Assembly: GCA_030527115.1 (NCBI GenBank)
Contig: JAUNBM010000001.1
Span: forward strand, 11,631 to 75,630
DNA: 64,000 nucleotides
Direction of reading: 5' to 3'
Source: Clostridia bacterium
GTDB taxonomy: Bacteria; Bacillota; Clostridia; Christensenellales; CAG-138
The notes under the pieces were generated by a model that saw only the letters and a program-made list of their open reading frames with translations, did not search any database and had not been told where the DNA came from. This document shows positions 15,666 to 57,760 of the stretch, piece after piece (the first letter of the stretch is position 1; each line of letters starts with the position of its first letter). The translations under genes and the position numbers were made by a program.

Positions 15666-16309
15666 CGTTTTCTCCTCGTTTTTTTATTAAACATATGGTC
15701 GATCAACACAAACACATACCCCAGCGCAACGAAGGCGAGGTTCAGCCCCACCACATACAGCATGACCTTCCCTGCGCCGAGCCGGTCATAATCAATAAAG
15801 AAATACGGAAAGCGGGAGCCGTCGTAGAAGGTCGCCCCCGATGTGAATCCGTAAATTGTCGCAAAAACAAAATATATATCCGGGATAATCACCCATTTGA
15901 GCGGCGATAGCTTCGTATACCTGCCCTTTTCATCAAACAGCAACCAGTCCGCCACGCACAGAAGCGGGGTAACCGTATGCAAGAGCTGATTCGCCACGGT
16001 CTGCGTGCTACCCATGTTGAACGAGATGTGCGACAGCATGGTGTGAAACACGAGGCCCGTAACCGTGATGCCCATAATCAGCGCGCCCTTCAAATCCGGC
16101 AGTAGCGTTGCCCCGCCCTTAATCGCACGCACGCACGCGACGCTGAAATAGCACGCTATCAGCACATTGCTGACGAGCGTGTAGTACCTGAGCATGGAAA
16201 AGTCCATATCTCCGCTGAATACGCCGCATTGAATAAGAATTCCCGCCCACGCGCAAACGGCAATCAGCGCCTTGAATCCGGCGGACAGGTGTTTGTTACT
16301 AATTCTCAA
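15662..16309 (-). CDS. Polytopic membrane protein (possibly Pr6Pr/FAR-17a-like family)
   Basis: 215 aa with about 6 hydrophobic segments. LRYYTLVSNVLIA resembles the Pr6Pr family signature as I recall it. TTG start with GAGGG 4-5 nt upstream. Confidence 0.45.
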   Translation of the reverse strand: MRISNKHLSAGFKALIAVCAWAGILIQCGVFSGDMDFSMLRYYTLVSNVLIACYFSVACVRAIKGGATLLPDLKGALIMGITVTGLVFHTMLSHISFNMGSTQTVANQLLHTVTPLLCVADWLLFDEKGRYTKLSPLKWVIIPDIYFVFATIYGFTSGATFYDGSRFPYFFIDYDRLGAGKVMLYVVGLNLAFVALGYVFVLIDHMFNKKTRRKR

Positions 16310-19767: not shown

Positions 19768-19779
19768 TTCCCATTTCAC

Positions 19780-21876: not shown

Positions 21877-22941
21877 TTATTCAAGCAATTCGGGATTGAA
21901 TTCTCTCCCATTTGCTCTAAAATCATTGTCAAGTACAGCGCTCGCTAAGTCGATGATGGCTGTAATATTCGGTACTGTAATGCCACAGTATTTTGCGGCA
22001 TTTTCTATTGGAACTAAGCCGCAAGGCACATCCTCCAAAAGATATCGGTGATGAAGAGTCCTCGGCGCATCGATTTCTTTGTACGCCTCGGTTGTTCTTA
22101 TACAAGAGTGAAAATCGTCGCCTTTAGCTCCGTATGTACGCTTCAACCATTCTTGCGTAGACTCGATATCATATCCCAACGCATGAGCAACAGAAAGCCG
22201 TTCGCTATCAACTTTTTCCAGAAAACGTGCCACGCTTGGAGATATGCCATCGTAATAGTATTTGAAATCAACCTTCGGTGTTTCTATCCAGCCGATATTC
22301 ATAAGAACAGGGGCACAGTGCAACACCATGCCGACGTTGGAGAGTGATGTAATAATTACGGACTCGGTCGGGACAAAATAGTTCCTCAAGCATTTTGGCA
22401 TTCTTGATAGTATCAAGTCTATATCAGATGATTTAATGGCAGCAATTTTTACATCGTGTTTCAGCGCATATATCACGGTGCTGTTCTTGTCACTCCGGCG
22501 ACATGTATAAACAATAGTTTGTGTCTCTGCGATATGCGGCATCTCTTTTACTCCGCAGTCTTTCAAAGTCCGAGCAAACTCTATTGCACCGAACGTCCTG
22601 CCGGGGTTTAGAACAATTACCATTTCCTTATGCACATATGGTGCTAAAGCTCTTGCAACATCTTTATGTGCACTACTCGGCGTTGTAACCATCACAAAAT
22701 TTGAGACTACCTCTGCGATATTGGATGAGGCCTTTTCAATAACTGCCGTACCGTTGACGATACCGGAGCACTCGATTTGATGCGATTCAATCACGTCAGC
22801 TATATTCTCGGGCGTTCTATTCCACAACGTCACAGTTACACCGGACAAAGCCAGATGAGCGGCCATTGACAGGCCTTGATGTCCTCCCCCGCAGACAAAT
22901 ACCTCTTCTGTTGGCTTATCGGCTATGCTGATATTAACCAT
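21877..22941 (-). CDS. NAD(P)-dependent octopine/nopaline (opine) dehydrogenase-family protein
   Basis: VFVCGGGHQGLSMAAHLALSGVTVTLWNR Rossmann N-terminus. The C-terminal YYYDGISPSVARFLEKVDSERLSVAHALGY resembles the opine-dehydrogenase C-terminal domain. ATG 22941 overlaps the upstream stop (ATGGTTAA); the listed start 22962 is TTG. Confidence 0.7.
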   Translation of the reverse strand: MVNISIADKPTEEVFVCGGGHQGLSMAAHLALSGVTVTLWNRTPENIADVIESHQIECSGIVNGTAVIEKASSNIAEVVSNFVMVTTPSSAHKDVARALAPYVHKEMVIVLNPGRTFGAIEFARTLKDCGVKEMPHIAETQTIVYTCRRSDKNSTVIYALKHDVKIAAIKSSDIDLILSRMPKCLRNYFVPTESVIITSLSNVGMVLHCAPVLMNIGWIETPKVDFKYYYDGISPSVARFLEKVDSERLSVAHALGYDIESTQEWLKRTYGAKGDDFHSCIRTTEAYKEIDAPRTLHHRYLLEDVPCGLVPIENAAKYCGITVPNITAIIDLASAVLDNDFRANGREFNPELLE

Positions 22942-24562
22942 TATTCGCGTCCAAGTGGGCAAGACGTGCCGCTTCGCTCAACACACCCTTTGTCTGTTTA
23001 TCATAAGCTACACAGGCGCCGTTAGCAAAGGTTGTGTGCAAATCTCCTTTGAACTTATCCCCCTTAACAATGTGAACAGTATCCATATATCCCTTCTTTA
23101 CAACATCGACAAGAATAACCGGATTCATTAACGGGTCTGAATCATATGAATACTTGTTGCGTATGAAATCCAACAACACCCTCGCCTCAGAAATAAGCTC
23201 TTCTTTCCGAGCAGCAATTCTTTCGTCCTTCTCCATTGAGAACTTATCTCCCAATGTGTGCCTGATAACGCCCTTCACTATCTTACAGCTTTCAATTATC
23301 TCTTCCGCTCCCGCCGCATGGTCCGCCTCACAGTACCCGACAACGTGTATGATATGCGGTTTTACCGCCATCTGCATAAATGTGGAAGCCGCAAGCTGCC
23401 CTTTTGCCACATAGGGGTCGGCGTTGAACAGGGGCAGTCCCGCTCGAGTCTGGCGGTATGTTTTAAAACTGTCATCTTCCAGGCTTTCCACCATTTCAAT
23501 CATTGCAAGTACTCTGGCATAGTCCATTGAGAACGAGATGCCGTTGGGATTGTTGAACATATATTGTGCGATGTAGTTCTTCACACCGAGCTTCTTAGCG
23601 TTATAAGCGGCTATATAAGCGGCTGCAACCGGTATTACATCGTGTGCATCTCGAAGTCCCCAGTGATGCGGCTCATTGAGTTCAACGGGGACGTTGCGCT
23701 CAGCGTGCCAATGGATGAGCTCCTGTGCCTCCTTGACGGATACCTCTATCGGCCTCGTCCCGCGACCATCCATTTCGTTATACCAAAAGAGCGGAATTGC
23801 CGTCCATGCGTTATCAATCGTTCTGAGAAGAGTATCGGCATACTTGAACACATCTGCTGTTCCGCTATAACAGCGCATAAGAGGGAAATTTCCGCGCTTC
23901 GATGCCTCCTTGAGTCGCCGAAAATCATCTTCTGACCTTATAGGCACACCGCCTGCGCCGTCAAATTCCTTTTGCATATGTTCTTGGTCAAACAGATACT
24001 GCTGCGCATTCTGGTCAGGCCCGAGGGAGACAACATCCAACACCTTCGCATTAGATACTTTCTTAACAGCGTCTACCGTTGCATCCATTGTGGGCAAGCC
24101 CAAGTGATGTCGCAGTATCGGGTATGGGTAGGACTTCTTTATCCGCTCCATAAGCGTTGCGCCATAGCTGTCAGCGCCTTCAATCTTATTATCTCTGCGC
24201 AAAAATCTGATTGAATCATTGATGTCGTCGAAGCCATCTGAGATGAATGAGAATAGACCGTATCTCGTCGCCACATCCGCCACGGGCTTTGTTCCGCCAA
24301 AGACCCAGACGGGGGAATAGTCAAGCCTATCCGCTCTTTCCTTAACTTCATCCAGCAGAGAAATAACATTCGCCGGAGTCAATCGATAGCTAATTCCTAT
24401 CATGTCCGGACGAAATAAGTGTATCTCTTCAAATAATTTGTCTATTGGGACTGCAGGTCCCATAAACCGGCATTCGTATCCTTCTTCTTCAGCAAGCTGA
24501 AGAAAATGATACACACCCGCAACATGGACACAGTTGCCAATGGATGCACCTAATAACTTCAT
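22934..24562 (-). CDS. B12-binding-like (flavodoxin-fold) domain fused to a large C-terminal domain of unknown function
   Basis: The N-terminus LLGASIGNCVHVAGVYHFLQLAEEEGYECRFMG..DMIGISYRL follows the layout of cobalamin-binding domains, but the DxHxxG motif reads NCVHVAG (Asp missing). I cannot place the remaining ~400 aa. AAGGAG lies 8 nt upstream of ATG 24562. Confidence 0.55.
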   Translation of the reverse strand: MKLLGASIGNCVHVAGVYHFLQLAEEEGYECRFMGPAVPIDKLFEEIHLFRPDMIGISYRLTPANVISLLDEVKERADRLDYSPVWVFGGTKPVADVATRYGLFSFISDGFDDINDSIRFLRRDNKIEGADSYGATLMERIKKSYPYPILRHHLGLPTMDATVDAVKKVSNAKVLDVVSLGPDQNAQQYLFDQEHMQKEFDGAGGVPIRSEDDFRRLKEASKRGNFPLMRCYSGTADVFKYADTLLRTIDNAWTAIPLFWYNEMDGRGTRPIEVSVKEAQELIHWHAERNVPVELNEPHHWGLRDAHDVIPVAAAYIAAYNAKKLGVKNYIAQYMFNNPNGISFSMDYARVLAMIEMVESLEDDSFKTYRQTRAGLPLFNADPYVAKGQLAASTFMQMAVKPHIIHVVGYCEADHAAGAEEIIESCKIVKGVIRHTLGDKFSMEKDERIAARKEELISEARVLLDFIRNKYSYDSDPLMNPVILVDVVKKGYMDTVHIVKGDKFKGDLHTTFANGACVAYDKQTKGVLSEAARLAHLDANNG

Positions 24563-24675: not shown

Positions 24676-25701
24676 TTACCTATTTCCGTACATCTGCTGG
24701 TAATAATTCTGATACTCGCCCGATATGATTGTTCCCCACCACGACCTGTTGTTCAGATACCATTGAATCGTCAATTTAATGCCCTCCTCAAACTTAGTTT
24801 CGGGAAGCCACCCAAGCTCATTATGGATCTTTGTCGGGTCAATAGCATATCGCAAATCATGGCCTTTTCGATCGGTGACATATGTAATCAGGCTTTCCGG
24901 TTTACCAAGTTCTTTGCAGATTAGCCTGACTATATCAATGTTGCGCATCTCATTGTGGCCCCCGATGTTGTATACCTCACCTGCTCTGCCATTATGAATG
25001 ATTAAATCTATCGCCTTGCAATGGTCTTTAACATACAGCCAGTCCCGCACATTCAGTCCTTCTCCATATACGGGCAAGGGCTTGTCGTTAAGACAATTTG
25101 CAATCATCAGCGGAATGAGTTTCTCGGGGAAATGATAAGGCCCGTAATTATTCGAGCAACGGCTTATGGTTACCGGTAATCCATAGGTTCTATGGTAAGC
25201 AAGGGCAAGAAGATCCGCTGCGGCCTTCGAGGAGCTGTACGGACTGCTTGTATGAATCGGCGTTTCCTCCGTAAACAGCAGATCGGGACGGTCAAGCGGC
25301 AGATCTCCGTAAACCTCATCCGTACTCACCTGATGGAAGCGCTCAATTCCGTATTTGCGGCAAGCGTCCATCATCACCGCTGTTCCCATAATATTCGTTT
25401 CAAGAAAGACCCCGGGATTTTCTATGCTTCTGTCAACGTGGCTTTCCGCCGCAAAGTTGACAACGATGTTCGGCTTTTCTTCCTCAAATAGCCTGTATAC
25501 AGCATCACGGTCGCAGATGTCCGCCCTAACAAAACGAAACTGCGGATTATCCATAACCGATGAAAGCGTTGCAAGATTGCCTGCGTAGGTCAGCTTATCC
25601 AGACAAACGATACGGTAGTTCGGATATTTATCAAGCAGGTAGAAAATGAAATTTGAACCGATAAACCCTGCGCCACCGGTAACAATCAGAGTCTTATTCA
25701 T
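24676..25701 (-). CDS. rmlB: dTDP-glucose 4,6-dehydratase
   Basis: [18 protein letters not shown] start at ATG 25701, overlapping the rmlA stop (ATGA). [11 protein letters not shown] active-site YxxxK. The 72 extra N-terminal codons of the listed ORF overlap rmlA. Confidence 0.92.
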
Positions 25702-26585
25702 GCTCTCAACGCCTCCTTGGCCAATGAAATAAGGTACTGTCCATAATCCGTCATACTCAATTCCTCCCCAATCGACATCAGTTGCTCCGTCGATATGAAT
25801 TTGCGCCGCCACGCAATTTCCTCTATGCAAGAAACATAAAAGCCCTGTCTGGACTGAACCGCCTCCACAAACTCCGCCGCTTTCAGCATTCCATCCGGAC
25901 TGCCGGTATCCAGCCATGCAACTCCTCGGCCCAGAAGCTGAACATGGAGCTTGCCCTTCGCAAGATAGGCATTGTTTACGGCTGTGATTTCGATTTCACC
26001 GCGGGCGGAGGGCTTGACGTTCTTAGCAATCTCAATTACACGGTTATCATAGAAATAGAGTCCCGGAACGGCGTAATTTGACTTTGGATTTTCCGGCTTT
26101 TCTTCAATGCTGACGACCTTATGCTCCCTGTCAAATTCCACCACGCCGAAGCTCCTCGCATCTTTGACCGGATATCCGAAGATGCAAGCTCCTTCGTTGT
26201 CTTCAACTTTCTTTATCGCATTCCACAAAGTCCTCGAAAGGTCTTGACCGTAGAACACATTGTCACCAAGAATAAGGCATACCGAGTCAGACCCGATAAA
26301 CTCCTCGCCGAGTATGAAGGCGTCTGCAAGCCCGCGCGGACTGTTCTGCACCTTGTACGAGAAGCTGACGCCTATTCTCGAACCATCTCCAAGCAAGCGT
26401 TCATATACAGGCGTGTCCTCCGGCGTGGAAATAATCAGTATTTCTCGGATGCCTGCCAAGAGCAGCATGGATAAAGGATAGTAGATAAGCGGCTTGTCGT
26501 AAATCGGCAAAAGCTGCTTTGAAACGGCCTTTGTTATCGGGTAAAGTCGAGTACCCTTTCCCCCGGCTAAGATAATGCCCTTCAT
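25698..26585 (-). CDS. rmlA: Glucose-1-phosphate thymidylyltransferase
   Basis: [39 protein letters not shown] is the canonical RmlA N-terminus. Confidence 0.92.
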
Positions 26586-26605: not shown

Positions 26606-27715
26606 TTATTTTAATATTAGCTCACATATCCTATCGACATCTTCGAGCGCGAGGTCGGCATACAGCGGGAGCGTGAGAACACGCTCTGCGATACGTGTGG
26701 CAATCGGCGTTCTTTCTCCGCCGGCGGTCGGATAATCCTTGTAAGCCGTTGTTGTATTAATCGACGGATAGAAATATTTGCGGGCGGTGATGCCCTGTGC
26801 CAGCAGACGATCGCAAATCTCATCCCGGGTATATTTATAGCCGTCAAAGACGGCCGGAAAATACGCATAATTGGATATGACGTCCGGTTGCGGTTGGTTG
26901 AGGATGATGCCGGTCGTGCTGCTAAGCCGTTCACGGTATCTTTCGCAAACTCGTTTGCGTTTGGCAATCTCGTCTTTCAAGTGACGAAGGTTACATAGCC
27001 CCATTGCCGCTTGAAACTCGTTCATTTTAGCGTTTCCGCCAATGTAATTCACATCCTCTTGACTTTGGATGCCGAAATTCTTATAAGCGTCGCACAGCGA
27101 AACCAGCTTGTCATCCGAATAGCAAACCGCACCACCCTCTATGGTATGGAACACCTTAGTTGCATGAAAGCTGAACATGGATGCGTCGCCAAAGCACGCT
27201 GAGCTGACGCCCTTATAGGTCACACCGAAAGAGTGCGCCGCATCATAAATTACTTTTAATTTGTGCCTGTCCGCAATGCGCTTGATTTCCTCCACATCGC
27301 ATAGATTTCCATAAACATGAACCGGAACGATTGCCGAGGTCTTTTTCGTAATCAGAGCTTCGATTTTTGTTGTATCTATGGTGTAATCGACCGGGTTGAT
27401 ATCGCAGAAAACAGGCGTCAATCCGCAGCGCACTATCGCATGTGTGGTTGATGCAAAGGTGAAAGGCGATGTGATAACCTCACTTCCGCGGGGCAACTGC
27501 ATTGCGGTAATAATATTCTCAAGCCCCAGATGACCGTTTGCGTACAGGGTGACATGAGGGACGCCCCAATATTTCTCAAGCTCCTCCTGAAGCTGACGGT
27601 GTTTCGCTCCCATGTTGGTCAGCCATCGGCTATCCCATAATTCTTTTATTTCCGCACAGTATTCCTCGAAAGAGGGCATCGATGAACGGGTTACCTGTAT
27701 TTTTTCTCTGTTCAT
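26606..27715 (-). CDS. DegT/DnrJ/EryC1/StrS-family sugar aminotransferase (probably acts on dTDP-4-keto-6-deoxyglucose)
   Basis: 369 aa. The [16 protein letters not shown] region, DAAHSFG and [14 protein letters not shown] (PLP lysine) motifs are present. Substrate is inferred from adjacency to rmlA/rmlB and the absence of rmlC/rmlD. Confidence 0.8.
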
Positions 27716-27737
27716 TTTGTTTTTCTCCTCTGCTTTA

Positions 27738-29015
27738 TTACAAAAGTCCGTACAGCAAAACCAAACATACCCAAGCCGTTACAAGGCCAATTATGCCAAT
27801 CAGACCGCCTATTTTGAAGTAGTCCTTAAAGCGATAGCCTGCAACTTGAACCATTGTAACCGATGTTGTTGCTGCCGGCGTTGCCATTGCTAAACTTGCA
27901 CCAAACACGCATGCCATAGCAATCGGCATCGGATTGCACCCAACTTCAATTGCCATTGGGATTCCGACTGCCGCCAACATGGATACAAGGGAACCGTTTG
28001 ACATAAACAGCGAAAGCACGTAACCCGAGACAAGGAACAAGGTAACTAACACAATGGGATTTGCAACCCCTTCCCCCAGAATGTCTACAAGCCAGTTGAT
28101 AATACTCTCTCCGACACCGGAATTTACAAAGCCTTTCGCAATCCCAAGGGCGGCTCCAAGGGTCACTATCGCAGGCCAAAACATATTTTTCAAAGCCTTC
28201 TTGCCATCCACGCACTTGGTCATTATAAGAATAAGGGCACCCGTTATTGCTATCTGTCCTAACTCCCATCCGAACGGCTGAATCACAAAGAGGATTGCAC
28301 ATACAATGAAAATTGTAATCGATATGCCTGCTTTTCTCTTATTGATTGGAACATCGCTTACATTTTGTTCCGATTCTTCTGATACTTCTTGAAAGTCAAA
28401 GCACTTCACTTGCACCTTGTAAAGGAAAGTCATATAGCAAACTGCTATTACCGCAACAATTGAAAATGCAATCGGGAAGGTTTCAAAAAACCCCATGGTC
28501 TCTGCGCCTACCTCGGCAAGCACATTATTTGCCAGCAATGGGGCGGTGCTTCCCGCAAGAGTTCCCGTTCCCCCTATTAGGCCTCCCGCAGCAAGGGGTA
28601 AGTATGTGTTCTTCTTGGTAATTCTGCCTCCCGATGTTGCAGCAACGGAGGCAATGAACGGCATGAACATAGCTACCAGAGATGCATTTGTCATAAACAT
28701 CGAAAGTACGGCAGCAAGCAGAAAGACTACAACTACAAATGTTTTCTCCTTTTTCCCAACATATTTTGTCAATACTTTCCCAATCTTTCCCCCAATGCCG
28801 CTTTCCAATAAGGCATTGATGATTATCACCATGCCAATAACAAGCAATACCGCAGTGTTTGTAAACCCGGAAAATGCTTCTGCAGGGGTTAATATGCCTG
28901 CATAAACCATCGCTAACATTCCGACCGTCGTCGTTACTGCAACGGGAAAAATCTCAAGCACATATAATAAACATGTGCATCCAACTATAATTAATGCAAT
29001 TGTGCTGTTGTCCAT
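27738..29015 (-). CDS. SLC13/DASS (ion-transporter superfamily) solute permease
   Basis: 425 aa and polytopic with a two-fold internal arrangement. The FTNTAVLLVIGMVIIINALLESG and SMFMTNASLVAMFMP / SLFMSNGSLVSMLAA hairpin-like SN-motif repeats are typical of DASS/CitMHS-like permeases. Confidence 0.7.
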   Translation of the reverse strand: MDNSTIALIIVGCTCLLYVLEIFPVAVTTTVGMLAMVYAGILTPAEAFSGFTNTAVLLVIGMVIIINALLESGIGGKIGKVLTKYVGKKEKTFVVVVFLLAAVLSMFMTNASLVAMFMPFIASVAATSGGRITKKNTYLPLAAGGLIGGTGTLAGSTAPLLANNVLAEVGAETMGFFETFPIAFSIVAVIAVCYMTFLYKVQVKCFDFQEVSEESEQNVSDVPINKRKAGISITIFIVCAILFVIQPFGWELGQIAITGALILIMTKCVDGKKALKNMFWPAIVTLGAALGIAKGFVNSGVGESIINWLVDILGEGVANPIVLVTLFLVSGYVLSLFMSNGSLVSMLAAVGIPMAIEVGCNPMPIAMACVFGASLAMATPAATTSVTMVQVAGYRFKDYFKIGGLIGIIGLVTAWVCLVLLYGLL

Positions 29016-29026
29016 AGCTTATTCTC

Positions 29027-30316
29027 CTAAAAAAACAATCTATTTGTGTCAAATGGCTTGAACAGCATGTTATTTCCATGTACATCTGTAACAACAATAC
29101 TCCGCTGAGCTTCTTTGATATACTCAGCAATCTCATCCAAAGAAGTTCCACTTAGTTTGACAAATATGCCACGGCGCTGGGTTGAATCATCACTTGATAT
29201 TGACTTGCCCACCTCCACATACGAGTGAATGCCATCAACCCAATCTTTGTCTTGGAGCGCAGAATAATCGACCTCACCTATCGTTCCCTCGTTCAGGTAT
29301 GTACACAGAGTACACAGATATCTTCCAAAGTGCGCTCTTTCTTTCTTTAGATCATCTCCCATACTGCCCGTGAGCGAATAACTGATAAGCATCTTCATAT
29401 AGTTGATGCCGTTATATTTCTCAATCACCCTACAATCATTATTGCCATTGAGCCTGTACCCCATTTCAAAAATCTTTACCCCCTGCTCGTTAGCAATTCC
29501 TTGGAAGAAGGCGACACCATTTTTTACACCAATGTTGCTTAAAAGCTCCTTGATTTGTACATCTATATTTTCCACATACATTTCATAATATCTTGAAGGG
29601 GCCAGCACAATATCGCAAAGTCCTGATATCCTTTCGTGATCTTGAGAAATGAATTTCTCGCTCAAACTCGACAGGCTGATTTCCCCATTCGCAACGGTGT
29701 AAATTGCCATTAACTCAGTCCCGACAACATACTCTTCGCAAATGATGGACTGACTATCAGAGTACTGCAGCGCATATTCTATCGCTTCATTTAATTGTTC
29801 TTCGTTGTAACATACTGTTATTCCTTTACACCCTGCGTAGTCTGTAGGTTTCACGATTACAGGATAGATAACGAGTTGTTTTTCTTCTTCTGTTAGTGGT
29901 TTTGAAAAGCAGTAATCCTTTGCTACAGGAATACCGTGCTTAAGACAAAGGTCTTTGAAGCTTCGCTTGTTGCGAGTTATATTGACTTGCTCTTCTGTCG
30001 CATAAAATGGCGTTCCAAGTGCTGCCGCTATCTTTGCGGCGAAAAGGACCTTAAATTCACTATATCCCGCCATAACGCCGGAAACACCGTTAAGGCGACA
30101 CTTTTCTACTACCTTGTCGATGTTCGAGTAATCGTCACACCATACTTCGTCTGCCATATACTTTGCATACGCAGTTGTTATATCAGCATTTCTGCCGATG
30201 AGAATCACATAGACCCCCATCTCGTGAGCGGCTTCTATGAGCTCCTCATATTCTTCTATACCTACTGCAAGAAGCTTTTTCCCTTTACATTTCTCGTAAC
30301 CGAAGTGTTCTTTCAT
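29027..30316 (-). CDS. ATP-grasp domain ligase, paralog 1
   Basis: 429 aa. Pre-ATP-grasp Rossmann-like N-terminus, YPVIVKPTDYAGCKGITVC, and EMGYRLNGNN (Mg/ATP loop region). Collinear with ORFs 31904..33187 and 52628..53902. Confidence 0.75.
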   Translation of the reverse strand: MKEHFGYEKCKGKKLLAVGIEEYEELIEAAHEMGVYVILIGRNADITTAYAKYMADEVWCDDYSNIDKVVEKCRLNGVSGVMAGYSEFKVLFAAKIAAALGTPFYATEEQVNITRNKRSFKDLCLKHGIPVAKDYCFSKPLTEEEKQLVIYPVIVKPTDYAGCKGITVCYNEEQLNEAIEYALQYSDSQSIICEEYVVGTELMAIYTVANGEISLSSLSEKFISQDHERISGLCDIVLAPSRYYEMYVENIDVQIKELLSNIGVKNGVAFFQGIANEQGVKIFEMGYRLNGNNDCRVIEKYNGINYMKMLISYSLTGSMGDDLKKERAHFGRYLCTLCTYLNEGTIGEVDYSALQDKDWVDGIHSYVEVGKSISSDDSTQRRGIFVKLSGTSLDEIAEYIKEAQRSIVVTDVHGNNMLFKPFDTNRLFF

Positions 30317-30421
30317 TTCAGAATATCCCCCAATATATCGCTTTTACTCACAGAGATGTAGCATATCGGATTTTATCGATTCTTTTGTTCCAAATGATTC
30401 CGAACATGCTTGTACCTTAAT

Positions 30422-30991
30422 TTAGCCATCATTGTTCAACTCAACATTGTCCTTAATATACCTCGCAGGATTTCCGGCAACTATTGTGTTCGGAGCTATA
30501 TCGTGCGTTACCACGGAGCCTGCGCCAACAACTGCATACTCGCCAATCGTAACTCCGGGCAAAATAATGCTCGAAGCACCAATCCAAGCTCCCTTTTTAA
30601 TGGTAGTCATAACTGGAATCGCATTGTCATTTTCTCTATGCGACAATTTGTATAGGTCATGTTTGTGCGAATAGATTTTTGTCCCCTCAGAAATTGTCAC
30701 ATCGTCTTCAATAATCACTTTCCCCGAATAATCTACAGTAATATCATCGGCAAAAATAACCCGGCACCCAATATGAAGCTCACCTTCGAGCTTATGCGTG
30801 CGGTAAAAAAAGACATCATGTCCAATACTCAACCCTTCCCCGATGTTAAACAACTCGGTATAGGCTCTAATCCTTTCGCGAAACGTATCAGGGAAGCTAT
30901 ATTCTTTACTTCCGAACTTGTATTGAATGCGTCTTTGTTGTTCTTGTTCTGCTGCGTATTTTTCGTAATTCATTTTATCCCGTCCTATCAT
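30422..30991 (-). CDS. Left-handed beta-helix (hexapeptide) acetyltransferase, LacA/Maa-like
   Basis: [46 protein letters not shown] hexapeptide repeats. The start overlaps the SDR stop (TAATG). Confidence 0.8.
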
Positions 30992-31899
30992 TAATTGGGT
31001 AACTGCTGTTTTTTGATATAATGATCAAAGAGTGCTTCAATCATATCATCATATCCGTAACGCGGCGCCCAGTTGAAAGTATTGCAAAATAAAGTATTGT
31101 CCATGCCGACTTCGAGTTTTACATCAAATTCTTCATTAATAATAACGGCATTTCCATTATATTTTGTTTTATAAATACGCCTAACGTCCTCAGCGAGCTC
31201 AGCAATTGTCCGTGTTACGCCTGTACTGAGATTGTAAACTTTTCTAAGCGCCATACTGTCGGCTAAGGTTGCAACGAGAGTCAGGGCCTCCGCCACGTCG
31301 CGCACATCGATAAAGGAACAGCTTTGCGTTCCGCCCATCACCTTTATCGGAATATTCTTTAAGGCATTTCGCACAAAAACAGCTAAAAACCTTGCATTCT
31401 CGGATACTGAAGACAGTCGTATATTAGTGTATCTTACGTTTGTATCTGAAAGTGCAGCGTTTGTCATCGCTTCACTTGCGTATTTTCCCATCGCATACAA
31501 ATAGTCAGGGTCAGCAGGCGTGCTCTCGCTCCAGAGCGGAGGCTCGCTCTGCCCGTAAACGCTTTGTGATGAGATGTTTATAAATGCAGAAATGCACCCG
31601 CTCTTAACAACCCCTAAGACACTTTCGAGGTAATCCAGAGAAGACGCAATATCTCTACCGCTCTTGCTTCGTGCAAATGCACAATGAATCAACGCATGGA
31701 AATGTAGCCGTTCCTGTTCAATTCTTTTTTTCAATTCGTCAAGAGACAGGCAGATAACGTTGTTGTTAGCATACCTGCCTAACAATTTATGCGGATCGCT
31801 GCTTACCGCATATATTGTGCATTGACAAGAGTTTTGAAGTTGACATATGAGTTCCGATGCAATTAGTCCGGATGCGCCGGTCACAATATAGTTTTTCAT
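30991..31899 (-). CDS. NAD-dependent epimerase/dehydratase-family SDR
   Basis: [17 protein letters not shown] glycine-rich N-terminus (start ATG 31899) and YAMGKYASE (YxxxK). Confidence 0.7.
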
Positions 31900-31903
31900 G
31901 CCT

Positions 31904-33187
31904 TTAACTATAATCATCCAGTATGGTCGCATCAAACACAGGCAACAACATGTTTTCGCCGTTGATGTCGGTAATACTGTAAGTTTTCTTTAGTTTTTCG
32001 AGAATTTCTTGTAATTCTTTTGTGTTTTCTGCATGGCAGAAAACTCTTAAAACGACTTGAAGTAGCGTACCAACATATCGTTCTTCAATAAGGTCTCCTT
32101 CAAGCAATGCCGGCACTGCAGCAATAATCCCATCGATTTTCCCAACATCGTTTATTCCTTCAACTGCGCCAATCCGTCCGGGCTTGCCGAGCAATGTTAT
32201 GTTGTAAACATGATTGAGCTTTCGGTAATCTAAAACCTTGGTATTAAAGCCTTTGTCCCACATTCTGCCCGTAAACGCAAAATGAATCATCATATCCATG
32301 TGATTGTAACCAGCCGCATATTGGGTCAAATAATACTCAAGGGAGCCTGTCAATCTAAAACCGATATCGTACACATGACATACCCCGTCTTCTATCAGGC
32401 ATTGAAGGAATAGTATTCCGTTTTTCAGTCCAATGCTGCGAAACATCGCTTCTGTGTGTATGCGCTCATTATTGTAGTAGCTTTCTGCATATACAGACGG
32501 GAAGGAATAGGCGACGGGCAGACCAATGCATCCCTCTTGTTCATGTTCAATATGGCGGTCACCCAGACCGATGAAATAAATCTGACCGTCATTAATCAAG
32601 TAAAACGCCGTTGCTTCCTTTCCACGAACATACCTTTCAACCAGCACCTTTTTCTCAGCTGAAAACAGCATCGCTTTTTCATACGCTTTATGTAATTCGT
32701 TTGCATTATTACAAATACTGATGCCGCGGGCTCCGCTGTTGTCGGATGGCTTTATCAATATAGGAAACCTGATGCAAGACTCAACATAATTTGCGTCGAA
32801 CAGTTTGTCTGCATCATACTCATCAATGGTCGGAACGCCGTACTCTACGCATAATTTTTTATATAGATGCTTATTGATAAAAATGTTGAATTGTTCTTCC
32901 GTTCCATAGCACGGGAGGCCGGCCGCATGACATATATCGCAATAGTACTTCAAATGCGAGTCGGCAAATCCGGTCATTATTCCGCTTATCTTTTCTTCTC
33001 TTATTATGGACAAAAGACCTTCGACATCATTTATGCTTACGTTGTAATATTTATCGGCGGCACGCTTTGCCGGAGCCTTTTCAATTGGGTTCCAGTCCGT
33101 CACAATCGTATATATTCCCAATCTTTTAGCCGCCTTAACTATTTCCAACGCAAGTCTTGTGCTGCCTAAAACCAGCAAGCGCTCCAT
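31904..33187 (-). CDS. ATP-grasp domain ligase, paralog 2
   Basis: FPILIKPSDNSGARGISIC and DIGFRLTGS motifs. The C-terminus ..INGENMLLPVFD parallels paralog 1 (..VHGNNMLFKPFD). ATG 33187 (MERLLVLGS..) aligns with the paralog N-termini; the listed start is 33208. Confidence 0.75.
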   Translation of the reverse strand: MERLLVLGSTRLALEIVKAAKRLGIYTIVTDWNPIEKAPAKRAADKYYNVSINDVEGLLSIIREEKISGIMTGFADSHLKYYCDICHAAGLPCYGTEEQFNIFINKHLYKKLCVEYGVPTIDEYDADKLFDANYVESCIRFPILIKPSDNSGARGISICNNANELHKAYEKAMLFSAEKKVLVERYVRGKEATAFYLINDGQIYFIGLGDRHIEHEQEGCIGLPVAYSFPSVYAESYYNNERIHTEAMFRSIGLKNGILFLQCLIEDGVCHVYDIGFRLTGSLEYYLTQYAAGYNHMDMMIHFAFTGRMWDKGFNTKVLDYRKLNHVYNITLLGKPGRIGAVEGINDVGKIDGIIAAVPALLEGDLIEERYVGTLLQVVLRVFCHAENTKELQEILEKLKKTYSITDINGENMLLPVFDATILDDYS

Positions 33188-33188
33188 A

Positions 33189-34145
33189 TCAACGGTTCCC
33201 TTCTTCATCGACTGCGTTTATCAGCTTAAACATATCCTCTGCCCCATACCGTTGATCAATCGGTAACGGCAGAATATTTTGCGCCATATCCCGCTCCAAA
33301 TCGTTGCTGTCTACCTTCATCACGTCCTGCCACAGAGTTGGTATATATATGTGTTTTTGGATTAGACGCTTCCGAATAGCAGCGCCGTTCTCAACATACA
33401 GCGGATACATAAACGGGGCTTCCGGTGTTTTGAGAGCGAGCTTGTTGATGGAGCTCAAAGCCGTCGATAGAATGCGCCAATTCTCATTACGTTTATGCCT
33501 AACTACTTCATAGTCAATCGCTCTGAGGATGTTATGCGTGAGTTTTGACATCAATCGCAGCGGTAGTTTGTAGTGTTCCTCTTCTGCTGATTGATACGCC
33601 CCGTAAAAATCGCCGGCAACGCCTTCGTATCTGCCGAGTAAGTGCATCATTCTGTCAGCCGACCTGTCCATATCGAGCACGTCATCAATTCTCGCATTCG
33701 TGGACAAGTAAGCGCCGTCGGGAACACCGAAGTACTTCCTGCAAGTGTAAATGGTATCTATACCGCCTATAGGTTCTTGAAAAAAAGCCTGCACATTATC
33801 AAGAATCATACATGGATATTTTCTCTTAAACTCCAATATCTCGTCATCGGATAGCTGCCCATAGTAGTTTACGAGATAGAGCCACGAATCAGCCGGAGGG
33901 GCAAACTCGGAATCAGGCCTAAAATTCAAGCCAACATGGTAATATATAACTTCGCAGTTATTCTCAACGCACACCCTTGAAACGCAATCGCAAAGGAAAT
34001 AAGGGATACAGAGCTTCTTAATGTTCCTTGCTTTTATTAGGTAGACCACAGCGTTTCTGGCAGAATTCAATGCGAGAAGATCCGGGTAATACTCCTTTCC
34101 CTTAAAATCATCTAATTCTATATAGCCGCCGATCTCGTCTCTCAT
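33189..34145 (-). CDS. Hypothetical protein, possibly a divergent DegT-like PLP-fold enzyme
   Basis: LNSARNAVVYLIKA..LCIPYFLCDCV, LDNVQAFFQ and CRKYFGVPDGAYL loosely parallel the DegT-family blocks (..AL..L...V..P.....V; D.AQA.G; S....K......GG). ATG 34145 has GAAGGTGA upstream; the listed start 34175 is GTG. Confidence 0.4.
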   Translation of the reverse strand: MRDEIGGYIELDDFKGKEYYPDLLALNSARNAVVYLIKARNIKKLCIPYFLCDCVSRVCVENNCEVIYYHVGLNFRPDSEFAPPADSWLYLVNYYGQLSDDEILEFKRKYPCMILDNVQAFFQEPIGGIDTIYTCRKYFGVPDGAYLSTNARIDDVLDMDRSADRMMHLLGRYEGVAGDFYGAYQSAEEEHYKLPLRLMSKLTHNILRAIDYEVVRHKRNENWRILSTALSSINKLALKTPEAPFMYPLYVENGAAIRKRLIQKHIYIPTLWQDVMKVDSNDLERDMAQNILPLPIDQRYGAEDMFKLINAVDEEGNR

Positions 34146-34179
34146 CGTTTCACCTTCTTTGCGTTCAACAACCACCCTT

Positions 34180-35418
34180 TTATTCCGTGACTACGCACAC
34201 ATATTTGCCGATTTTGTTCATATGCTTCTCAAGCTGCTCTTGATTCGGAAATCTCAACACAAGCGTCCCAATCGCTTCGTTTGCGCCTGAAAAACCATGG
34301 ACTTTATCGCCTGTCTTTACCCACAAGTCACGCTCGATAACTGTATTCGCTATCTCCGGCGCAATCCATAGCTCCTTAAACTCTCCATCCTTATCGGCAT
34401 GAAGTATAACCTCTGCCCAAGAGCCGGAGTAGACCGGATCACCGTCTATTCCCTCTACAGGCATTCCAACGGCGGCTCTGACCGCATTTGTTATCAGGTC
34501 AACACCTGTTGCCATTCTCAGCACTTCTGCCAGCCTGTTACCGCCGCCTCTTGGCGATACTTCCATGATGTACGGCTTTCCATCCGTCCCCTGTCGCGTT
34601 TCAATATTGTAGATAGAGGTTTTAAGTCCAAGAAGCGTGATGAGCCGTTGAAGCTCCGAACGAAGCTCTTGACGGGCTTGTAACGGCATTGTCGAAGGCC
34701 AGCTAAACGCGGCTGGCACATACGGATTTTCTGCATTTTCGTCAAAATGTTGGTCGCTGAACGAGCAAAAGACGAGTTCCCCATTCACTGAAAAGCAGTC
34801 TGTATCTGAGGAATTTCCCTGTTTTTCGATGAATTCTTCAACAATAAATTCATTGCAGTGAGAGAAAGAAATGGCGTTTTCTATACTGCTTTCAAGTTCA
34901 TCAGGGTTATTAACCCGTGTCACTCCTTTGCTGCCCGCCGAGTCAGTCGGTTTTACAATGACGGGCCAGCGGAACAACTCTATGTCATTCAAAGCACTTT
35001 GAATATCCGTATACCCCTTTGCCATCGGCACATTAAACCCGTTATCAGTTAGAAATTTTCTAAAACGGGTCTTATTCTGTAAAATACTGACCGACTCATA
35101 TGAGCCACATGACGGGAGCCCCAATTTTTCCGCAACATAGGCTGCCGTAACAACCCCCGGGTCGCAAGCAAAGGACATTATACCGTCAATCTTTAATTCC
35201 TTTGCGAGATCAAGCACAGCGTCCTTCTCGATTATACTCACATTGCGATATTCATCCGAGTATTTGTGTGCAATATTCTCCGGAAGATAGTCGCAAGTAA
35301 TTACATAGCATCCAAGCTGATGAGCGGCGTCAATTACGGGCAAAATATAGCGAGACCCACCAAGCAATAAAATCTTTTTCACATTTCTCTCTTTTCCATG
35401 CATCAGCATTCTATCCAA
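34180..35418 (-). CDS. ATP-grasp domain ligase, paralog 3 (more divergent)
   Basis: KKILLLGGSRYILPVIDAAHQLG, WPVIVKPTDSAGSKGVTRV and YIMEVSPRGGGNR motifs of carboxylate-amine ligases. TTG start with GAGGG about 7 nt upstream. Confidence 0.75.
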   Translation of the reverse strand: MDRMLMHGKERNVKKILLLGGSRYILPVIDAAHQLGCYVITCDYLPENIAHKYSDEYRNVSIIEKDAVLDLAKELKIDGIMSFACDPGVVTAAYVAEKLGLPSCGSYESVSILQNKTRFRKFLTDNGFNVPMAKGYTDIQSALNDIELFRWPVIVKPTDSAGSKGVTRVNNPDELESSIENAISFSHCNEFIVEEFIEKQGNSSDTDCFSVNGELVFCSFSDQHFDENAENPYVPAAFSWPSTMPLQARQELRSELQRLITLLGLKTSIYNIETRQGTDGKPYIMEVSPRGGGNRLAEVLRMATGVDLITNAVRAAVGMPVEGIDGDPVYSGSWAEVILHADKDGEFKELWIAPEIANTVIERDLWVKTGDKVHGFSGANEAIGTLVLRFPNQEQLEKHMNKIGKYVCVVTE

Positions 35419-35428: not shown

Positions 35429-36925
35429 TCAATGTTCTGCCTGTTCCGCATCATTTTTGTCCTTTTCATCGTCATTCCCCGCCTTCTTTTTCCTGTGAAG
35501 GAATCCTTTGACTATCGTCCAAACATATGCAAAGCTCTCAAGATGAAAGAGTTTCGAGCCGGTTACATAAATCGCAACTCCGAGCGGTATCTGTATAAGC
35601 AACGTCAATATGCTGCTGAGATTCAAAAAATTAACACAGTAGACGATTGCGCCCATGCCGGCAGATAAGATTATCTGAGGAAGCATATCCTTAAGCTGAT
35701 CTATATAGCTGTAATTCATCAATTTCTTATTAGGCCATGAGTTAATTATTTGGGTAATGAAAGTCGTAAACAACAGGCTATATGCCATTGCCTCCACGCT
35801 TATCCACATTGTCACAGCCAACGCAGTCAGTCCAACAATTTTTTTGATTATTTCCAGCTTTAAAAACATGTCGCTTCGCCCCATGGCTTTTATAGCATTA
35901 AGGTTTGCTGTGTGAATAGGGTGAAAGGCCAAGGTGAAGCAGAATATGCGAAGAAACAGAACACTCGGAAGCCATTTGTCCGTCAGGAGCAAAGAGACTA
36001 TTGATTCTGCACATATTGCCAGTCCCACCATAAGTGGCATCATTAAATACGTGCTCGTTTTAATTGCGCGGCGCGTCATAGCTCTGACTCTATCCTTATT
36101 GTCTTGTTCAGCAGACATCGTAGGAAGCAGCACACTATCTATAGAGGCGTTTATGTTTGTTACAATAAGATTCGGAATGTGCTTTCCCCGATTATAGAAC
36201 GCCAGGTCCTCCGATGTGTAAAGCTTGGCAATGACAAGCGATCTGATATCATTATATACAACTTCGATTATCGAAGATGCTAACAGTTTCCAACCATATG
36301 AAAAGAGCACCTTTAGTCGTTGCCAAGAAAACCTGCGCTTAGGTCTCCATTTGACGGTAATCCACAGAATAATCGTATCCACTGTCTGATTAAATAAACT
36401 TTGTGCAACAAGTGCCCATACTCCGAAGCCGAGATACGCCATCACGATTCCTACAATTGCCGCGCCGATAGTTCCGCCCAATGTTGCGAAGAAGAATTTT
36501 TTGAATAGCAGGTTCCGCGAGACATATGCCTGCTGAACATTCTTGACGCCGGATATGATAAGCGTAAGACTGAGCACTCGAACTATCGGCGTTAACTCCG
36601 GCTTCTCATAAAATGAAGCTATCAGCGGAGCGGCAAAAAACATCCCAGCATACAGAATAGTGCATGCAGATATATTGAAGAAAAAAACTGTGGAGAAGTC
36701 CGTATCATCGGCGCCTTTCTTCTGAATCAAAGCATTGCCGAGTCCACTGTCAACAAATACCTGCATGATTGTCGTAAACACGGTTACAAGCGCCACCGTG
36801 CCATACACACCCGGATCAAGCAGACGGGCAAGGATAATCGAAACGATAAACGTAACGCCCTGCGCTCCGCACCGTTCGAGAAAACGCCAAATAAAATTTG
36901 AGAATATGCTGTCCGATTTTCTCAT
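35429..36925 (-). CDS. wzx: Wzx-type oligosaccharide flippase (MOP superfamily)
   Basis: 498 aa with about 12-14 TM segments. The N-terminus FLERCGAQGVTFIVSIILARLLDPGVYG is typical of polysaccharide-biosynthesis (Wzx) proteins. Confidence 0.8.
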   Translation of the reverse strand: MRKSDSIFSNFIWRFLERCGAQGVTFIVSIILARLLDPGVYGTVALVTVFTTIMQVFVDSGLGNALIQKKGADDTDFSTVFFFNISACTILYAGMFFAAPLIASFYEKPELTPIVRVLSLTLIISGVKNVQQAYVSRNLLFKKFFFATLGGTIGAAIVGIVMAYLGFGVWALVAQSLFNQTVDTIILWITVKWRPKRRFSWQRLKVLFSYGWKLLASSIIEVVYNDIRSLVIAKLYTSEDLAFYNRGKHIPNLIVTNINASIDSVLLPTMSAEQDNKDRVRAMTRRAIKTSTYLMMPLMVGLAICAESIVSLLLTDKWLPSVLFLRIFCFTLAFHPIHTANLNAIKAMGRSDMFLKLEIIKKIVGLTALAVTMWISVEAMAYSLLFTTFITQIINSWPNKKLMNYSYIDQLKDMLPQIILSAGMGAIVYCVNFLNLSSILTLLIQIPLGVAIYVTGSKLFHLESFAYVWTIVKGFLHRKKKAGNDDEKDKNDAEQAEH

Positions 36926-38012: not shown

Positions 38013-39245
38013 TCATACCTTAAACAGTCTCATCTTTTGATATAGGTTTTTTCTTCGCATGGCATGTTTGGCAATCTTTCTCACATCTTGTTTAGGGCGA
38101 ATACCTTTCTTCATGCGAACATAATACCGGACGGGAAGATACAGCCAAAAGAATGGAATTACCAGCGGTACTGCTCGGCATATTCTGAATTGCTGTTTTG
38201 CAGATACGGTTAGACTTCGCAACACGGATATCCCCAGCGCAACTTTCTTACCATCCTGTTCTCCGCTGACAATCCTGCTTCCCGTATTATGTTCAACTTC
38301 CCCGGATACTATATTGCCACTCGCCAATATATCCAGCATCAAATCCCGTGCGGTCTCTTCTTCAATATCCAAGCACCATTGCTGTTCCATCTCGTCCAAA
38401 CCCAGATAGCGCACACAAACATTTGTAAGAGTTTTTGCAAACTGCATCAGCCGACACTCCGCAATCGCCGGAAGCACCCGTTCCTTTAAGGCGTCTGCGC
38501 GTAGCGAGCCAATGAAAACACACCAATCGCATAGTTGCCTAAGTCCTATTCCAATATTAACCAGGTGTCGTTCCATATGCAACAGCAGGGAAAGCGCCTG
38601 ATCCACCTCAGATAGCACCGGAAAGCTATACCGACCTATTCTGGCGGTTGTCGCACGATCGACCGCATTATTAAGTAACAATTTGACTTCTTGCCCTATG
38701 GCAGAATCGGGAAACTGTGTCACCGCATAATGCAGTTCAAGGTAAATTCCCGCTTTGTCCAAGCCGATATGAAACGGATGATTAAACTCATGGCGATTAT
38801 ATCCATTAGCAACAAGGAGATCGAGCGCTTCCGCGCTTCGTTCCTCGCTAACCAAAAGGTCAATATCTCCCAAGATGCGCAATTCCGGGTTTGGATAGCT
38901 TGCCGCTACGCTTGCCCCCTTTAAAACAACGCTGGGAATACCCGCCGTTTTGAGCATGGAAACGATGTTCTCCTGCGCTTGCATGGAGCGTTCGTTATGC
39001 ATTACGACAGTAACGGCAAACCGCTTCCATTCCTGTAACGTTTCATCTGGTATCGGGCAGGTATCCCTGACGATGACAGCGCCTTGTAAAACCAGCGGAA
39101 GTATTGCATGCTTTCGTCCGATTGCGCCTACCTCTCGCCAATCTATATTATCCGGAACGGACGTTTCTATATCCTTATGAAGCGCCGCATTTAGCAACCG
39201 GAGTACCGCTTGCTCAGATGGGTTTATTTGTTCTCCGGTTTTCAT
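38013..39245 (-). CDS. Uncharacterised nucleotidyltransferase-fold protein (NTP_transf_5-like), paralog 2
   Basis: LGDIDLLV motif and full-length collinearity with 12431..13690. ATG 39245 lies 5 nt after the wbpE stop; the listed start 39284 is TTG and overlaps wbpE. Confidence 0.6.
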   Translation of the reverse strand: MKTGEQINPSEQAVLRLLNAALHKDIETSVPDNIDWREVGAIGRKHAILPLVLQGAVIVRDTCPIPDETLQEWKRFAVTVVMHNERSMQAQENIVSMLKTAGIPSVVLKGASVAASYPNPELRILGDIDLLVSEERSAEALDLLVANGYNRHEFNHPFHIGLDKAGIYLELHYAVTQFPDSAIGQEVKLLLNNAVDRATTARIGRYSFPVLSEVDQALSLLLHMERHLVNIGIGLRQLCDWCVFIGSLRADALKERVLPAIAECRLMQFAKTLTNVCVRYLGLDEMEQQWCLDIEEETARDLMLDILASGNIVSGEVEHNTGSRIVSGEQDGKKVALGISVLRSLTVSAKQQFRICRAVPLVIPFFWLYLPVRYYVRMKKGIRPKQDVRKIAKHAMRRKNLYQKMRLFKV

Positions 39246-39250
39246 TTGCT

Positions 39251-56275: not shown

Positions 56276-56292
56276 CCAAAGTCTCTTTTTAT

Positions 56293-56320: not shown

Positions 56321-56333
56321 TTTGGAGGCTGAA

Positions 56334-57754: not shown

Positions 57755-57760
57755 GGGCGC

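Follow-up and report, generated by a model that had tools for sequence, protein, structure and literature searches.

What is the function of a gene block in which three ATP-grasp ligases are packed, together with an anion permease and a second aminotransferase-like protein, between a flippase gene and the genes for an activated deoxy sugar? The question is raised by a stretch of 64,000 nucleotides from a Clostridia bacterium (GenBank assembly GCA_030527115.1, contig JAUNBM010000001.1, positions 11,631 to 75,630; hereafter the window), in which the block occupies positions 26606 to 35418. In our judgement, this block is probably the sugar-tailoring part of a capsule or exopolysaccharide (EPS) locus, its ligases building amide-linked carboxylic- or amino-acid substituents on a 4-amino sugar. 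A previous reading made from the letters of the DNA alone (the sequence-only reading) had listed the genes of the block, and all the open reading frames (ORFs) of its list are found on the minus strand, with the positions and families it had assigned; both these and the tight packing on one strand are borne out by ORF calls and by Pfam and NCBIfam matches, the gaps between block genes being -32 to +105 bp, as in an operon. The block and the genes that frame it are, in the order of transcription:

35429-36925, minus strand: Wzx flippase (Polysacc_synt_3, 4.2e-100), immediately upstream of AG3
34180-35418, minus strand: AG3, ATP-grasp ligase like the L-amino-acid ligases (LAL), first gene after Wzx (Pfam ATP-grasp_4/3, CPSase_L_D2, RimK, LAL_C2)
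33189-34175, minus strand: U328, divergent DegT-like protein with the fold of pyridoxal phosphate (PLP)-dependent aminotransferases (assigned by structure match and PLP residues)
31904-33208, minus strand: AG2, ATP-grasp ligase (Pfam), paired with the following gene
30991-31935, minus strand: extended short-chain dehydrogenase/reductase (SDR) of the NAD-dependent epimerase/dehydratase family (PF01370, 1.1e-22; GxxGxxG and YxxxK present)
30422-30991, minus strand: Hexa_a, hexapeptide-repeat acetyltransferase (Hexapep, 1.3e-11; WcaF/NeuD-like in NCBIfam)
29027-30316, minus strand: AG1, LAL-like ATP-grasp ligase (Pfam)
27738-29015, minus strand: DASS/CitMHS-type anion permease, 11 bp downstream of AG1
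26606-27715, minus strand: DegT_a, candidate sugar 4-aminotransferase (PF01041, E 6.7e-98)
25698-26585, minus strand: RmlA, glucose-1-phosphate thymidylyltransferase (TIGR01207, 460.5 bits, cut-off 360.65)
24676-25917, minus strand: RmlB, dTDP-glucose 4,6-dehydratase (TIGR01181, 487 bits, cut-off 365.1, residues 77-396)

A fourth ligase lies near the start of the same gene cluster, in a group of three:

54626-55900, minus strand: DegT_c, PseC-like (290 bits with the PseC model, below its cut-off)
53942-54559, minus strand: small phosphoglycosyl transferase, PGT (Bac_transf, 2.4e-53)
52628-53902, minus strand: AG4, fourth ATP-grasp, in the order DegT_c, small PGT, AG4

The four ligases are mutual paralogues at 26-32% identity (32% between AG4 and AG1), and the paralogy and ATP-grasp motifs on which the sequence-only reading had drawn are real. 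Their Pfam matches comprise ATP-grasp_3/4, CPSase_L_D2, Dala_Dala_lig_C, ATPgrasp_N and LAL_C2, and the AlphaFold2 model of AG1 (pLDDT 87.8) has as its top Foldseek match the L-amino-acid ligase 3vot (E 9e-28, TM 0.75-0.82). A three-domain ATP-grasp fold with a C-terminal LAL-type domain is found in all of them, by Pfam and, for AG1, in the model. The profile of the AG1 family comes closest to the uncharacterised Anaerococcus ATP-grasp 4dim, followed by carbamoyl-phosphate synthetase (CPSase), biotin carboxylases and 3vot. In the alignment of the four proteins K156-P157, E194, R288 and G291 are invariant; Q272, E284 and R288 of AG1 align with Q285, E299 and R303 of CPSase, and the Asn301 position is occupied by Gly or Ser, as in members of the PurK/PurT type. 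Conserved throughout are the Lys that binds ATP, the Glu of the hinge, the Gln/Glu that bind Mg and the catalytic Arg. Profile and structure searches, which had been proposed together with the sequence-only reading, place these proteins with the L-amino-acid ligases, and from their residues and the AG1 model AG1-AG4 are predicted to be competent LAL-like carboxylate-amine ligases. Their families are large, with more than 550 homologues for AG1 and, for AG2, 517 representatives at E<=1e-30, the best of them 47% identical.

The amine to which such ligases might couple an acid is suggested by the genes at the downstream end of the block. RmlA and RmlB score above their NCBIfam cut-offs, and DegT_a adjoins them, with the DesI-type 4-aminotransferase model TIGR04427 as its best NCBIfam match (283 bits, below the cut-off of 650). 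None of the ORFs scanned across the window has an RmlC domain, and RmlD-type matches are limited to weak RmlD_sub_bind ones in other SDRs of the window, so that rmlA and rmlB stand here without rmlC and rmlD, as had been read from the letters. This gene content is that of a pathway to a dTDP-4-amino-4,6-dideoxyhexose. As to rmlB, the longest ORF carries an N-terminal extension that overlaps rmlA by 220 nt; since the family model begins at residue 77, the true start is near 25695.

The protein encoded between AG3 and AG2 was less easily placed. U328, whose probable true start is Met11 (giving 318 amino acids), has no Pfam match even at E<=1 and no NCBIfam match, and the PF01041 model fails to recognise it. 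The top 50 Foldseek matches of its AlphaFold model (pLDDT 87) are, however, all of the DegT type (E 1.8e-12 to 9e-10, TM 0.59-0.67, the best match at TM 0.63), the leading names being WlaRG, ArnB, WbpE, DesV and PglE, at 15% identity. Its invariant D116 and K137 align with the Asp that contacts the PLP pyridine nitrogen and with the Schiff-base Lys (SFHATKVF) of DegT enzymes (hhalign probability 84%), and the description of U328 as a divergent DegT-like PLP-fold protein, already given by the sequence-only reading, is correct. Because it has no PF01041 match, is about 50 residues shorter than DegT and is 15% identical to its structural neighbours, the family of U328, with more than 5,387 homologues of about 315 amino acids, is a separate, uncurated sister family of the DegT sugar aminotransferases.

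That these proteins work together is indicated by other genomes. A genome scan with the AG1 family yielded 50 loci (AG1 orthologues in 48), and an alignment-based metagenome scan with AG2 yielded 80, 44 of them with a length of 8 kb or more (a scan with the single AG2 sequence returned none). In more than 60 loci, which come from Clostridia, Synergistaceae, Desulfosporosinus and Treponema, orthologues of AG3 and U328 are found again with those of AG1 or of AG2, the SDR and the acetyltransferase, and most of these loci adjoin the same DegT-RmlA-RmlB genes or directly follow a small PGT; since the synteny is kept in more than 60 independent loci, the arrangement is not due to chance. AG3 (orthologues at 36-72% identity) is the most widely conserved partner of U328 and lies directly upstream of it in 25 of the 48 genome loci and 17 of the 44 metagenome loci. 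Two classes can be distinguished among the genomes. Class A contains the triad AG3-U328-AG1 (25/48), usually in the order GT2-Wzx-AG3-U328-AG1-(DASS)-DegT_a-RmlA-RmlB, which is the order of the window. GT2-Wzx precedes AG3 in 15 genome loci, and 17 of the 25 triads have DegT_a (at least 50% identity) and RmlA within 10 kb, the DegT_a orthologues that adjoin the triad and RmlAB in these 17 loci being 53-72% identical to ours. In class B, which has the order DegT-PGT-AG1, the PGT lies directly upstream of AG1 (18/48) and behind AG1 comes a distant homologue of U328 (hhalign probability 98.5%), always beside a conserved FemAB-like gene that takes the place of AG3; DegT_c-PGT-AG4 of the window repeats the arrangement of these 18 AG1-orthologue loci. 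Glycan genes are nearby in 40 of the 48 genome loci. The synteny with DegT_a, RmlA and RmlB in 17 loci suggests the ligation of a carboxylic acid to the 4-amino group of the NDP-sugar.

The second half of the composition is explained by the metagenome loci, where an SDR homologue directly follows AG2 in 40 of 44 and a U328- or U332-type protein precedes it in the same number; in the window, the start of the SDR gene overlaps the end of the AG2 gene. Hexa_a comes after AG2-SDR in L103, L104, L107, L111, L115, L119 and L132, and the full string DegT_a-AG3-U328-AG2-SDR-Hexa_a, next to RmlA/RmlB, is present in at least five metagenome loci (L107, L111, L115, L119, L132). Given this recurrence, AG2-SDR-Hexa_a was rejected as an insertion specific to the window. 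Both AG3-U328-AG2-SDR-acetyltransferase and AG1-permease recur separately elsewhere, and the block of the window is therefore a composite of these two modules. Natural fusions confirm the functional coupling of the parts: U328 with an AG2-like ligase (P0371), a truncated DegT with an ATP-grasp (P0430), FemAB with an ATP-grasp (P0363), AG3 with a further ATP-grasp (P0365), GNAT with an ATP-grasp (P0388, P0465, L005), and an ATP-grasp with an SDR (P0450) or with PrpD (P0451). Among cultured bacteria, the spirochaete Treponema brennaborense has the order Wzx-acyltransferase-DegT-AG3-GNAT-U328-GNAT-GT2 (strain DSM 12168, L058); Desulfosporosinus nitroreducens P130 (L024) and Clostridium sp. 1001271st1_H5 (L021) are further carriers in culture.

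The permease of the block matches CitMHS (8.5e-45, 153.7 bits, cut-off 31.9) and Na_sulph_symp (1.7e-21, 77.3 bits, cut-off 27), and scores 125 bits (3.3e-36) with the curated 'dass' model TIGR00785, whose cut-off is 198.6; its homologues at 64-81% identity carry the NCBI name 'SLC13/DASS family transporter'. An anion permease, either DASS or DctM-like, accompanies AG1 in 22 of the 48 genome loci. Those of the window type (76-79% identity) are among them and stand directly downstream of AG1 in 7 genome loci, while in L047, L050, L052 and L053 the same position is occupied by a DASS-like gene that is only 29-32% identical; in 14 loci a DctM-like permease, with or without a LysR gene, replaces it. 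The substitution of non-orthologous permeases at one position is good evidence that the transported anion belongs to the pathway. The link does not extend to every homologue, since the permeases of about 65% identity in L006 and L007 are not beside intact ligases; it is limited to the clade of at least 70% identity and to the non-orthologous permeases at the same position. With permeases of two families tracking AG1, and ligases conserved together with DegT-RmlA-RmlB, Wzx and PGTs, the co-conservation on which the sequence-only reading depended is found.

A model for the block can be based on the observed identities and folds of the gene products, on their conserved catalytic residues and on synteny and fusions; in it we infer the substrates, the order of the steps, the direction of transport and the role of the second PLP enzyme. 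RmlA, RmlB and DegT_a would produce the dTDP-4-amino-4,6-dideoxyhexose, and the LAL-like ATP-grasps would build on its amine, through acyl-phosphates, an amide-linked acidic acyl or aminoacyl substituent, possibly a short peptide-like one, in a step comparable to those of Pyl (2-oxoglutarate on a UDP-4-amino sugar) and PglB2 (glycerate). The DASS permease may import the anionic acid used by AG1. U328 might make a further amine by transaminating a carbonyl, either on the sugar or on the attached acid, and this new amine would then be acylated by a second ligase (AG3 or AG2) or by the hexapeptide acetyltransferase; the SDR could supply or remove the carbonyl and, together with the acetyltransferase, adjust and cap the substituent. 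AG4, following DegT_c and the small PGT, is likely to carry out the equivalent N-acylation, of the Pyl/PglB2 type, on the initiating UDP-4-amino sugar.

A more specific version of this model, which we consider rather unlikely, has a keto- or hydroxy-dicarboxylic acid, imported by DASS or DctM permeases, ligated first, in the manner of Pyl and its 2-oxoglutarate, then transaminated by the U328/U332 family while on the NDP-sugar, and then extended or capped. The SDR would oxidise the hydroxy acid where needed, the new alpha-amine might be D-configured, and a second ATP-grasp, a FemAB-like aminoacyl-tRNA transferase or an acetyltransferase would extend or cap it. If true, this would explain why each ligase module has a DegT-like partner beyond the ordinary sugar aminotransferase, as well as the interchange of AG3 with the FemAB-like enzyme and the origin of D-aspartyl or N-acetyl-aspartyl Qui4N/Fuc4N. 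Alternatively, U328 could serve a second amination of the ring in the manner of WbpB/WbpE, using the SDR.

Several points weigh against the tailoring of a 4-amino sugar as the function of the block. DegT_a falls below the cut-off of the DesI model, so its action at C4 would be assigned by best hit and synteny; of the dTDP-4-amino-4,6-dideoxyhexose deduced in the sequence-only reading, RmlA, RmlB and the adjacent DegT_a support the pathway, whereas the C4 regiochemistry stays a prediction. DASS proteins can also work as exchangers or exporters, rather than importing the acid. Simple N-acylation would leave the second aminotransferase-like protein unexplained. Finally, six of the 25 triads (L009, L015, L019, L044, L051 and L056) have no glycan gene within 10 kb and sit among metabolic and transporter genes (EamA, fumarase, DASS, DctM). 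As about a quarter of the triads are thus away from glycan genes, we infer the attachment to sugar; the proposal of amide-linked substituents agrees in its direction with the Pyl and PglB2 precedents and with the synteny, and it is in the sugar as acceptor that it stays conditional. The isolated triads would fit a different account, unlikely in our view, according to which AG3-U328-AG1/AG2 and the permease form a self-contained small-molecule cassette whose product is a free N-acyl amino acid, a dipeptide or an opine-like compound, the acid being imported or exported, and whose product is handed to the glycan pathway secondarily in some genomes or never becomes attached to a sugar. Such triads stand with transporters, and with no glycan genes within 10 kb, in L005 and L009 (DASS), L003 and L019 (DUF1538 with P-II), L044 (EamA, fumarase), L051 and L015 (DctM); moreover, the closest structure is that of a true L-amino-acid ligase that makes free dipeptides, and among the fusion partners are PrpD, MBL and GNAT, all of them domains typical of small-molecule metabolism. 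However, the 40 genome loci with glycan genes and most of the metagenome loci are in glycan clusters, often in the interval between Wzx and DegT-RmlAB or right after a PGT, the folds of U328 and the SDR are those of NDP-sugar enzymes, and the product would still need to be ligated to the glycan, for which no other candidate ligase is present.

The uronic acid made by the wbp genes has also to be considered, as it was in the sequence-only reading. It is quite improbable, in our estimation, that any of the ATP-grasps couples an amine or amino acid to the C6 carboxyl of this 2,3-diacetamido uronic acid, by analogy with Cj1438C and with the ornithine amide of Treponema medium. Genes of the wbpA/B/D/E/I type are present in the window, where the amide-forming enzymes outnumber the sugar amines of the locus; amino-acid amides of uronic acids are common, T. 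medium having both Fuc4N-Asp and ornithine-amidated ManNAc3NA (PMC10609480), and Cj1438C shows that an ATP-grasp is capable of uronate amidation (PMC11800379). Nevertheless, it is with DegT_a/RmlAB or the PGT that the ligases occur across the loci, rather than with the wbp genes, and synteny therefore lends this option no support. Nor do the proteins resemble a TupA-like amidoligase of the Cj1438C type: no TupA-type family is among the Pfam matches listed for AG1-AG4 at E<=0.01, none of the four is fused to a GT2, and enzymes of the LAL type activate the carboxylate of a small molecule, not a polymer-bound one. A role in the cell wall, with the ligases acting on peptidoglycan or another wall peptide (a Ddl-, Mur- or FemAB-like variation of stem peptide or cross-bridge) and merely co-located with capsule genes, would be in keeping with weak matches to Ddl, pseudomurein ATP-grasp and cyanophycin synthetase models and with the FemAB-like partners of class B. 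Those matches are far below the family cut-offs, though, the synteny with Wzx, PGT and NDP-sugar genes is consistent, and no Mur, PBP or D-Ala metabolism genes are among the neighbours; we regard such a function as very improbable and reject it on gene context.

The wider locus gives the tailoring block its setting. Genes on the minus strand tile the window from about 12.4 to 55.9 kb, forming an island of low GC content (0.39-0.48, compared with 0.52-0.59 on either side). In the order of transcription, a LoaP-like antiterminator, the PseC-like DegT, the small PGT and AG4 are followed by four GT4s, a Wzy-like protein, a glucuronyl-C5-epimerase-like protein and a wbpA/I/B/D/E-type set; then come a PF14907 protein, GT2 and Wzx, the tailoring block, RmlA and RmlB, and lastly a B12-binding-domain protein, an opine-dehydrogenase homologue, a DctM-like permease and FnlA/B/C. 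The genes of this setting are:

57254-57829, minus strand: LoaP-like NusG-family antiterminator (90.6 bits, under the cut-off of 125), 1.35 kb upstream of the first cluster gene
56256-56984, plus strand: ThiT (YuaJ) thiamine transporter, in opposite orientation between the LoaP-like gene and the cluster
44565-45638, minus strand: homologue of the glucuronyl C5-epimerase C-terminal domain, adjoining the wbp-type genes, without an NCBIfam match
38013-39284, minus strand: PF14907 'uncharacterised nucleotidyltransferase', between wbpE and GT2
22934-24562, minus strand: B12-binding-domain protein of 542 amino acids, possible accessory gene of the same operon
21877-22962, minus strand: opine dehydrogenase homologue, downstream of rmlB in the same operon, possible accessory gene
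20506-21852, minus strand: DctM-like permease (DctM/TRAP-fused type), stand-alone without a DctP/Q partner, possible accessory gene
16344-19779, minus strand: FnlA/FnlB/FnlC-type L-FucNAc set, FnlA also scoring as PseB-like
14436-16309, minus strand: DUF7309/DUF6930 protein and Pr6Pr-family membrane protein, co-oriented directly after FnlC
12431-13690, minus strand: second, paralogous PF14907 gene, at the distal end of the cluster

A LoaP-like gene heads this Wzx/Wzy-dependent capsule/EPS cluster, which is of a Gram-positive, Clostridia type and whose bearer probably belongs to the Oscillospirales. Because of ThiT, LoaP and the nearest relatives, which are metagenome-assembled genomes (MAGs) of Acutalibacteraceae, Oscillospiraceae and Ruminococcus, it is not an enterobacterial O-antigen locus, and the comparison with enterobacterial O-antigens made in the sequence-only reading does not fit. 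Relatives of the PF14907 genes are found elsewhere between FnlA and FnlB (L055) or before FnlA (L053). The C5-epimerase-like protein might epimerise the diacetamido-uronic acid from manno to gulo, and FnlA may also contribute to the 4-amino sugar proposed as the acceptor for AG4.

Three of these genes could be accessory to the tailoring. The opine dehydrogenase homologue matches the Arthrobacter N-(1-D-carboxyethyl)-L-norvaline dehydrogenase 1bg6 (E 1.5e-57) and, by analogy, could make an N-(1-carboxyethyl)amino acid acyl group of the alanopine type; an alanopine-type acyl group on Qui4N is known in Providencia alcalifaciens O35. The B12 protein, which lies between rmlB and the opine dehydrogenase, has a B12-binding domain at its N terminus only; its assignment as a radical-SAM enzyme was rejected, as it has no CxxxCxxC motif, no Radical_SAM match and no relative in the PDB or NCBIfam. 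Neither protein has a homologue in the 50 related genome loci. Homologues of the DctM-like permease (44-52% identity), in contrast, accompany AG1 in 14 other loci, and in L022, L029 and L043 they stand behind a LysR regulator. As for the triads away from glycan genes, that at L044:4571-7744 is beside a class I fumarate hydratase, an EamA transporter and a radical-SAM/BATS protein, and that at L051:4496-7438 has a 2,4-diaminopentanoate dehydrogenase and a PALP enzyme as neighbours, hints of C4-dicarboxylate or amino-acid metabolism.

The acidic N-acyl and aminoacyl groups that 4-amino-6-deoxy sugars carry are often immunodominant on bacterial surface glycans; Pyl and PglB2 apart, hardly any enzyme that installs such groups has, to our knowledge, been characterised. 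The cassette family described here, abundant in gut and rumen Clostridia and present also in Treponema, Synergistaceae and Desulfosporosinus, would provide a defined gene set for such decorations, and it gives a genomic context to a large family of PLP enzymes that lacks a Pfam model. It would also connect capsule chemistry with the uptake of organic acids from the environment, and would offer glycoengineers ligases that attach carboxylates to nucleotide sugars.

Literature searches on ATP-grasp enzymes and glycan acylation found no description of this cassette. The view of the sequence-only reading that no characterised gene set resembles it is nonetheless wrong: two direct precedents exist, in Bacillus and Neisseria, together with a glycan amidoligase in Campylobacter, and the AG1-family genome scan contains no Bacillus or Neisseria locus. 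In the passages of PMC11626204 (citing Hwang et al. 2014) that concern the Pat/Pyl, or UDP-yelosamine, pathway of Bacillus cereus ATCC 14579, Pyl is an ATP-grasp that ligates 2-oxoglutarate to a UDP-4-amino sugar. According to that account, a small PGT is encoded beside a DegT-type 4-aminotransferase and an ATP-grasp, the latter joining a dicarboxylic (2-oxo)acid to the 4-amino group of an NDP-sugar; compared by gene arrangement, this is identical to DegT_c-PGT-AG4 of the window and to DegT-PGT-AG1 in the 18 loci. As there described, that pathway uses one ligase, one acid and a UDP-HexNAc substrate, whereas the window has three more ligases on the dTDP-6-deoxyhexose branch, an obligatory DegT-like second PLP enzyme, an extra SDR and acetyltransferase, and an embedded anion permease. 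The relevant passages of PMC11130364 and PMC6959607 present Neisseria PglB2 as a fusion of an ATP-grasp with a PGT from which the 4-glyceramido sugar GATDH results (4-glyceramido-2-acetamido-2,4,6-trideoxyhexose), an activity proposed there from genetics and mass spectrometry, not reconstituted. In these accounts the 4-amino group of a bacillosamine-type sugar is served by an ATP-grasp in place of an N-acetyltransferase, and this ATP-grasp is physically joined to a PGT; the differences are that the domains are fused, that the system is one of protein O-glycosylation and that glycerate is the single acid.

The other systems resemble the block in part. The TupA-like ATP-grasp Cj1438C of C. jejuni, which amidates glucuronate in the capsular glycan (PMC11800379), also makes an amide on a capsular sugar; however, this C-terminal amidoligase of Cj1438 is GT2-fused and works with the polarity reversed, in that it activates the carboxyl of glucuronate in the growing chain and joins ethanolamine or serinol phosphate to it. 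The L-amino-acid ligases (B. licheniformis BL00235, 3vot; YwfE/BacD type) are the best structural match of AG1, with a three-domain ATP-grasp and a LAL domain, and share the acyl-phosphate chemistry of the class predicted from the AG1 model, but they join two free amino acids and are 17-18% identical, and the genes here stand in a context of glycan biosynthesis. Chemical precedents are the glycans of Providencia, Proteus, Shigella and Treponema medium, in which 4-amino-4,6-dideoxyhexoses carry acyl or aminoacyl groups: Qui4N or Fuc4N is known with Asp, N-acetyl-Asp, N-acetyl-Gly, malonyl, malyl or alanopine, and T. medium has Fuc4N-D-Asp together with diamino-uronates of the wbp type, one of which (ManNAc3NA) is L-ornithine-amidated (PMC10609480). 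These hosts are Gram-negative bacteria or spirochaetes, and their ligase genes are uncharacterised as far as the literature searches show, yet the T. medium repertoire of Fuc4N-D-Asp and diamino-uronates matches that encoded by the window. What is new in the present locus, in comparison with all of these systems, is the elaboration of an amino-sugar N-acylation of the Pyl/PglB2 kind by multiple ligases, with an obligatory DegT-like partner and an embedded permease.

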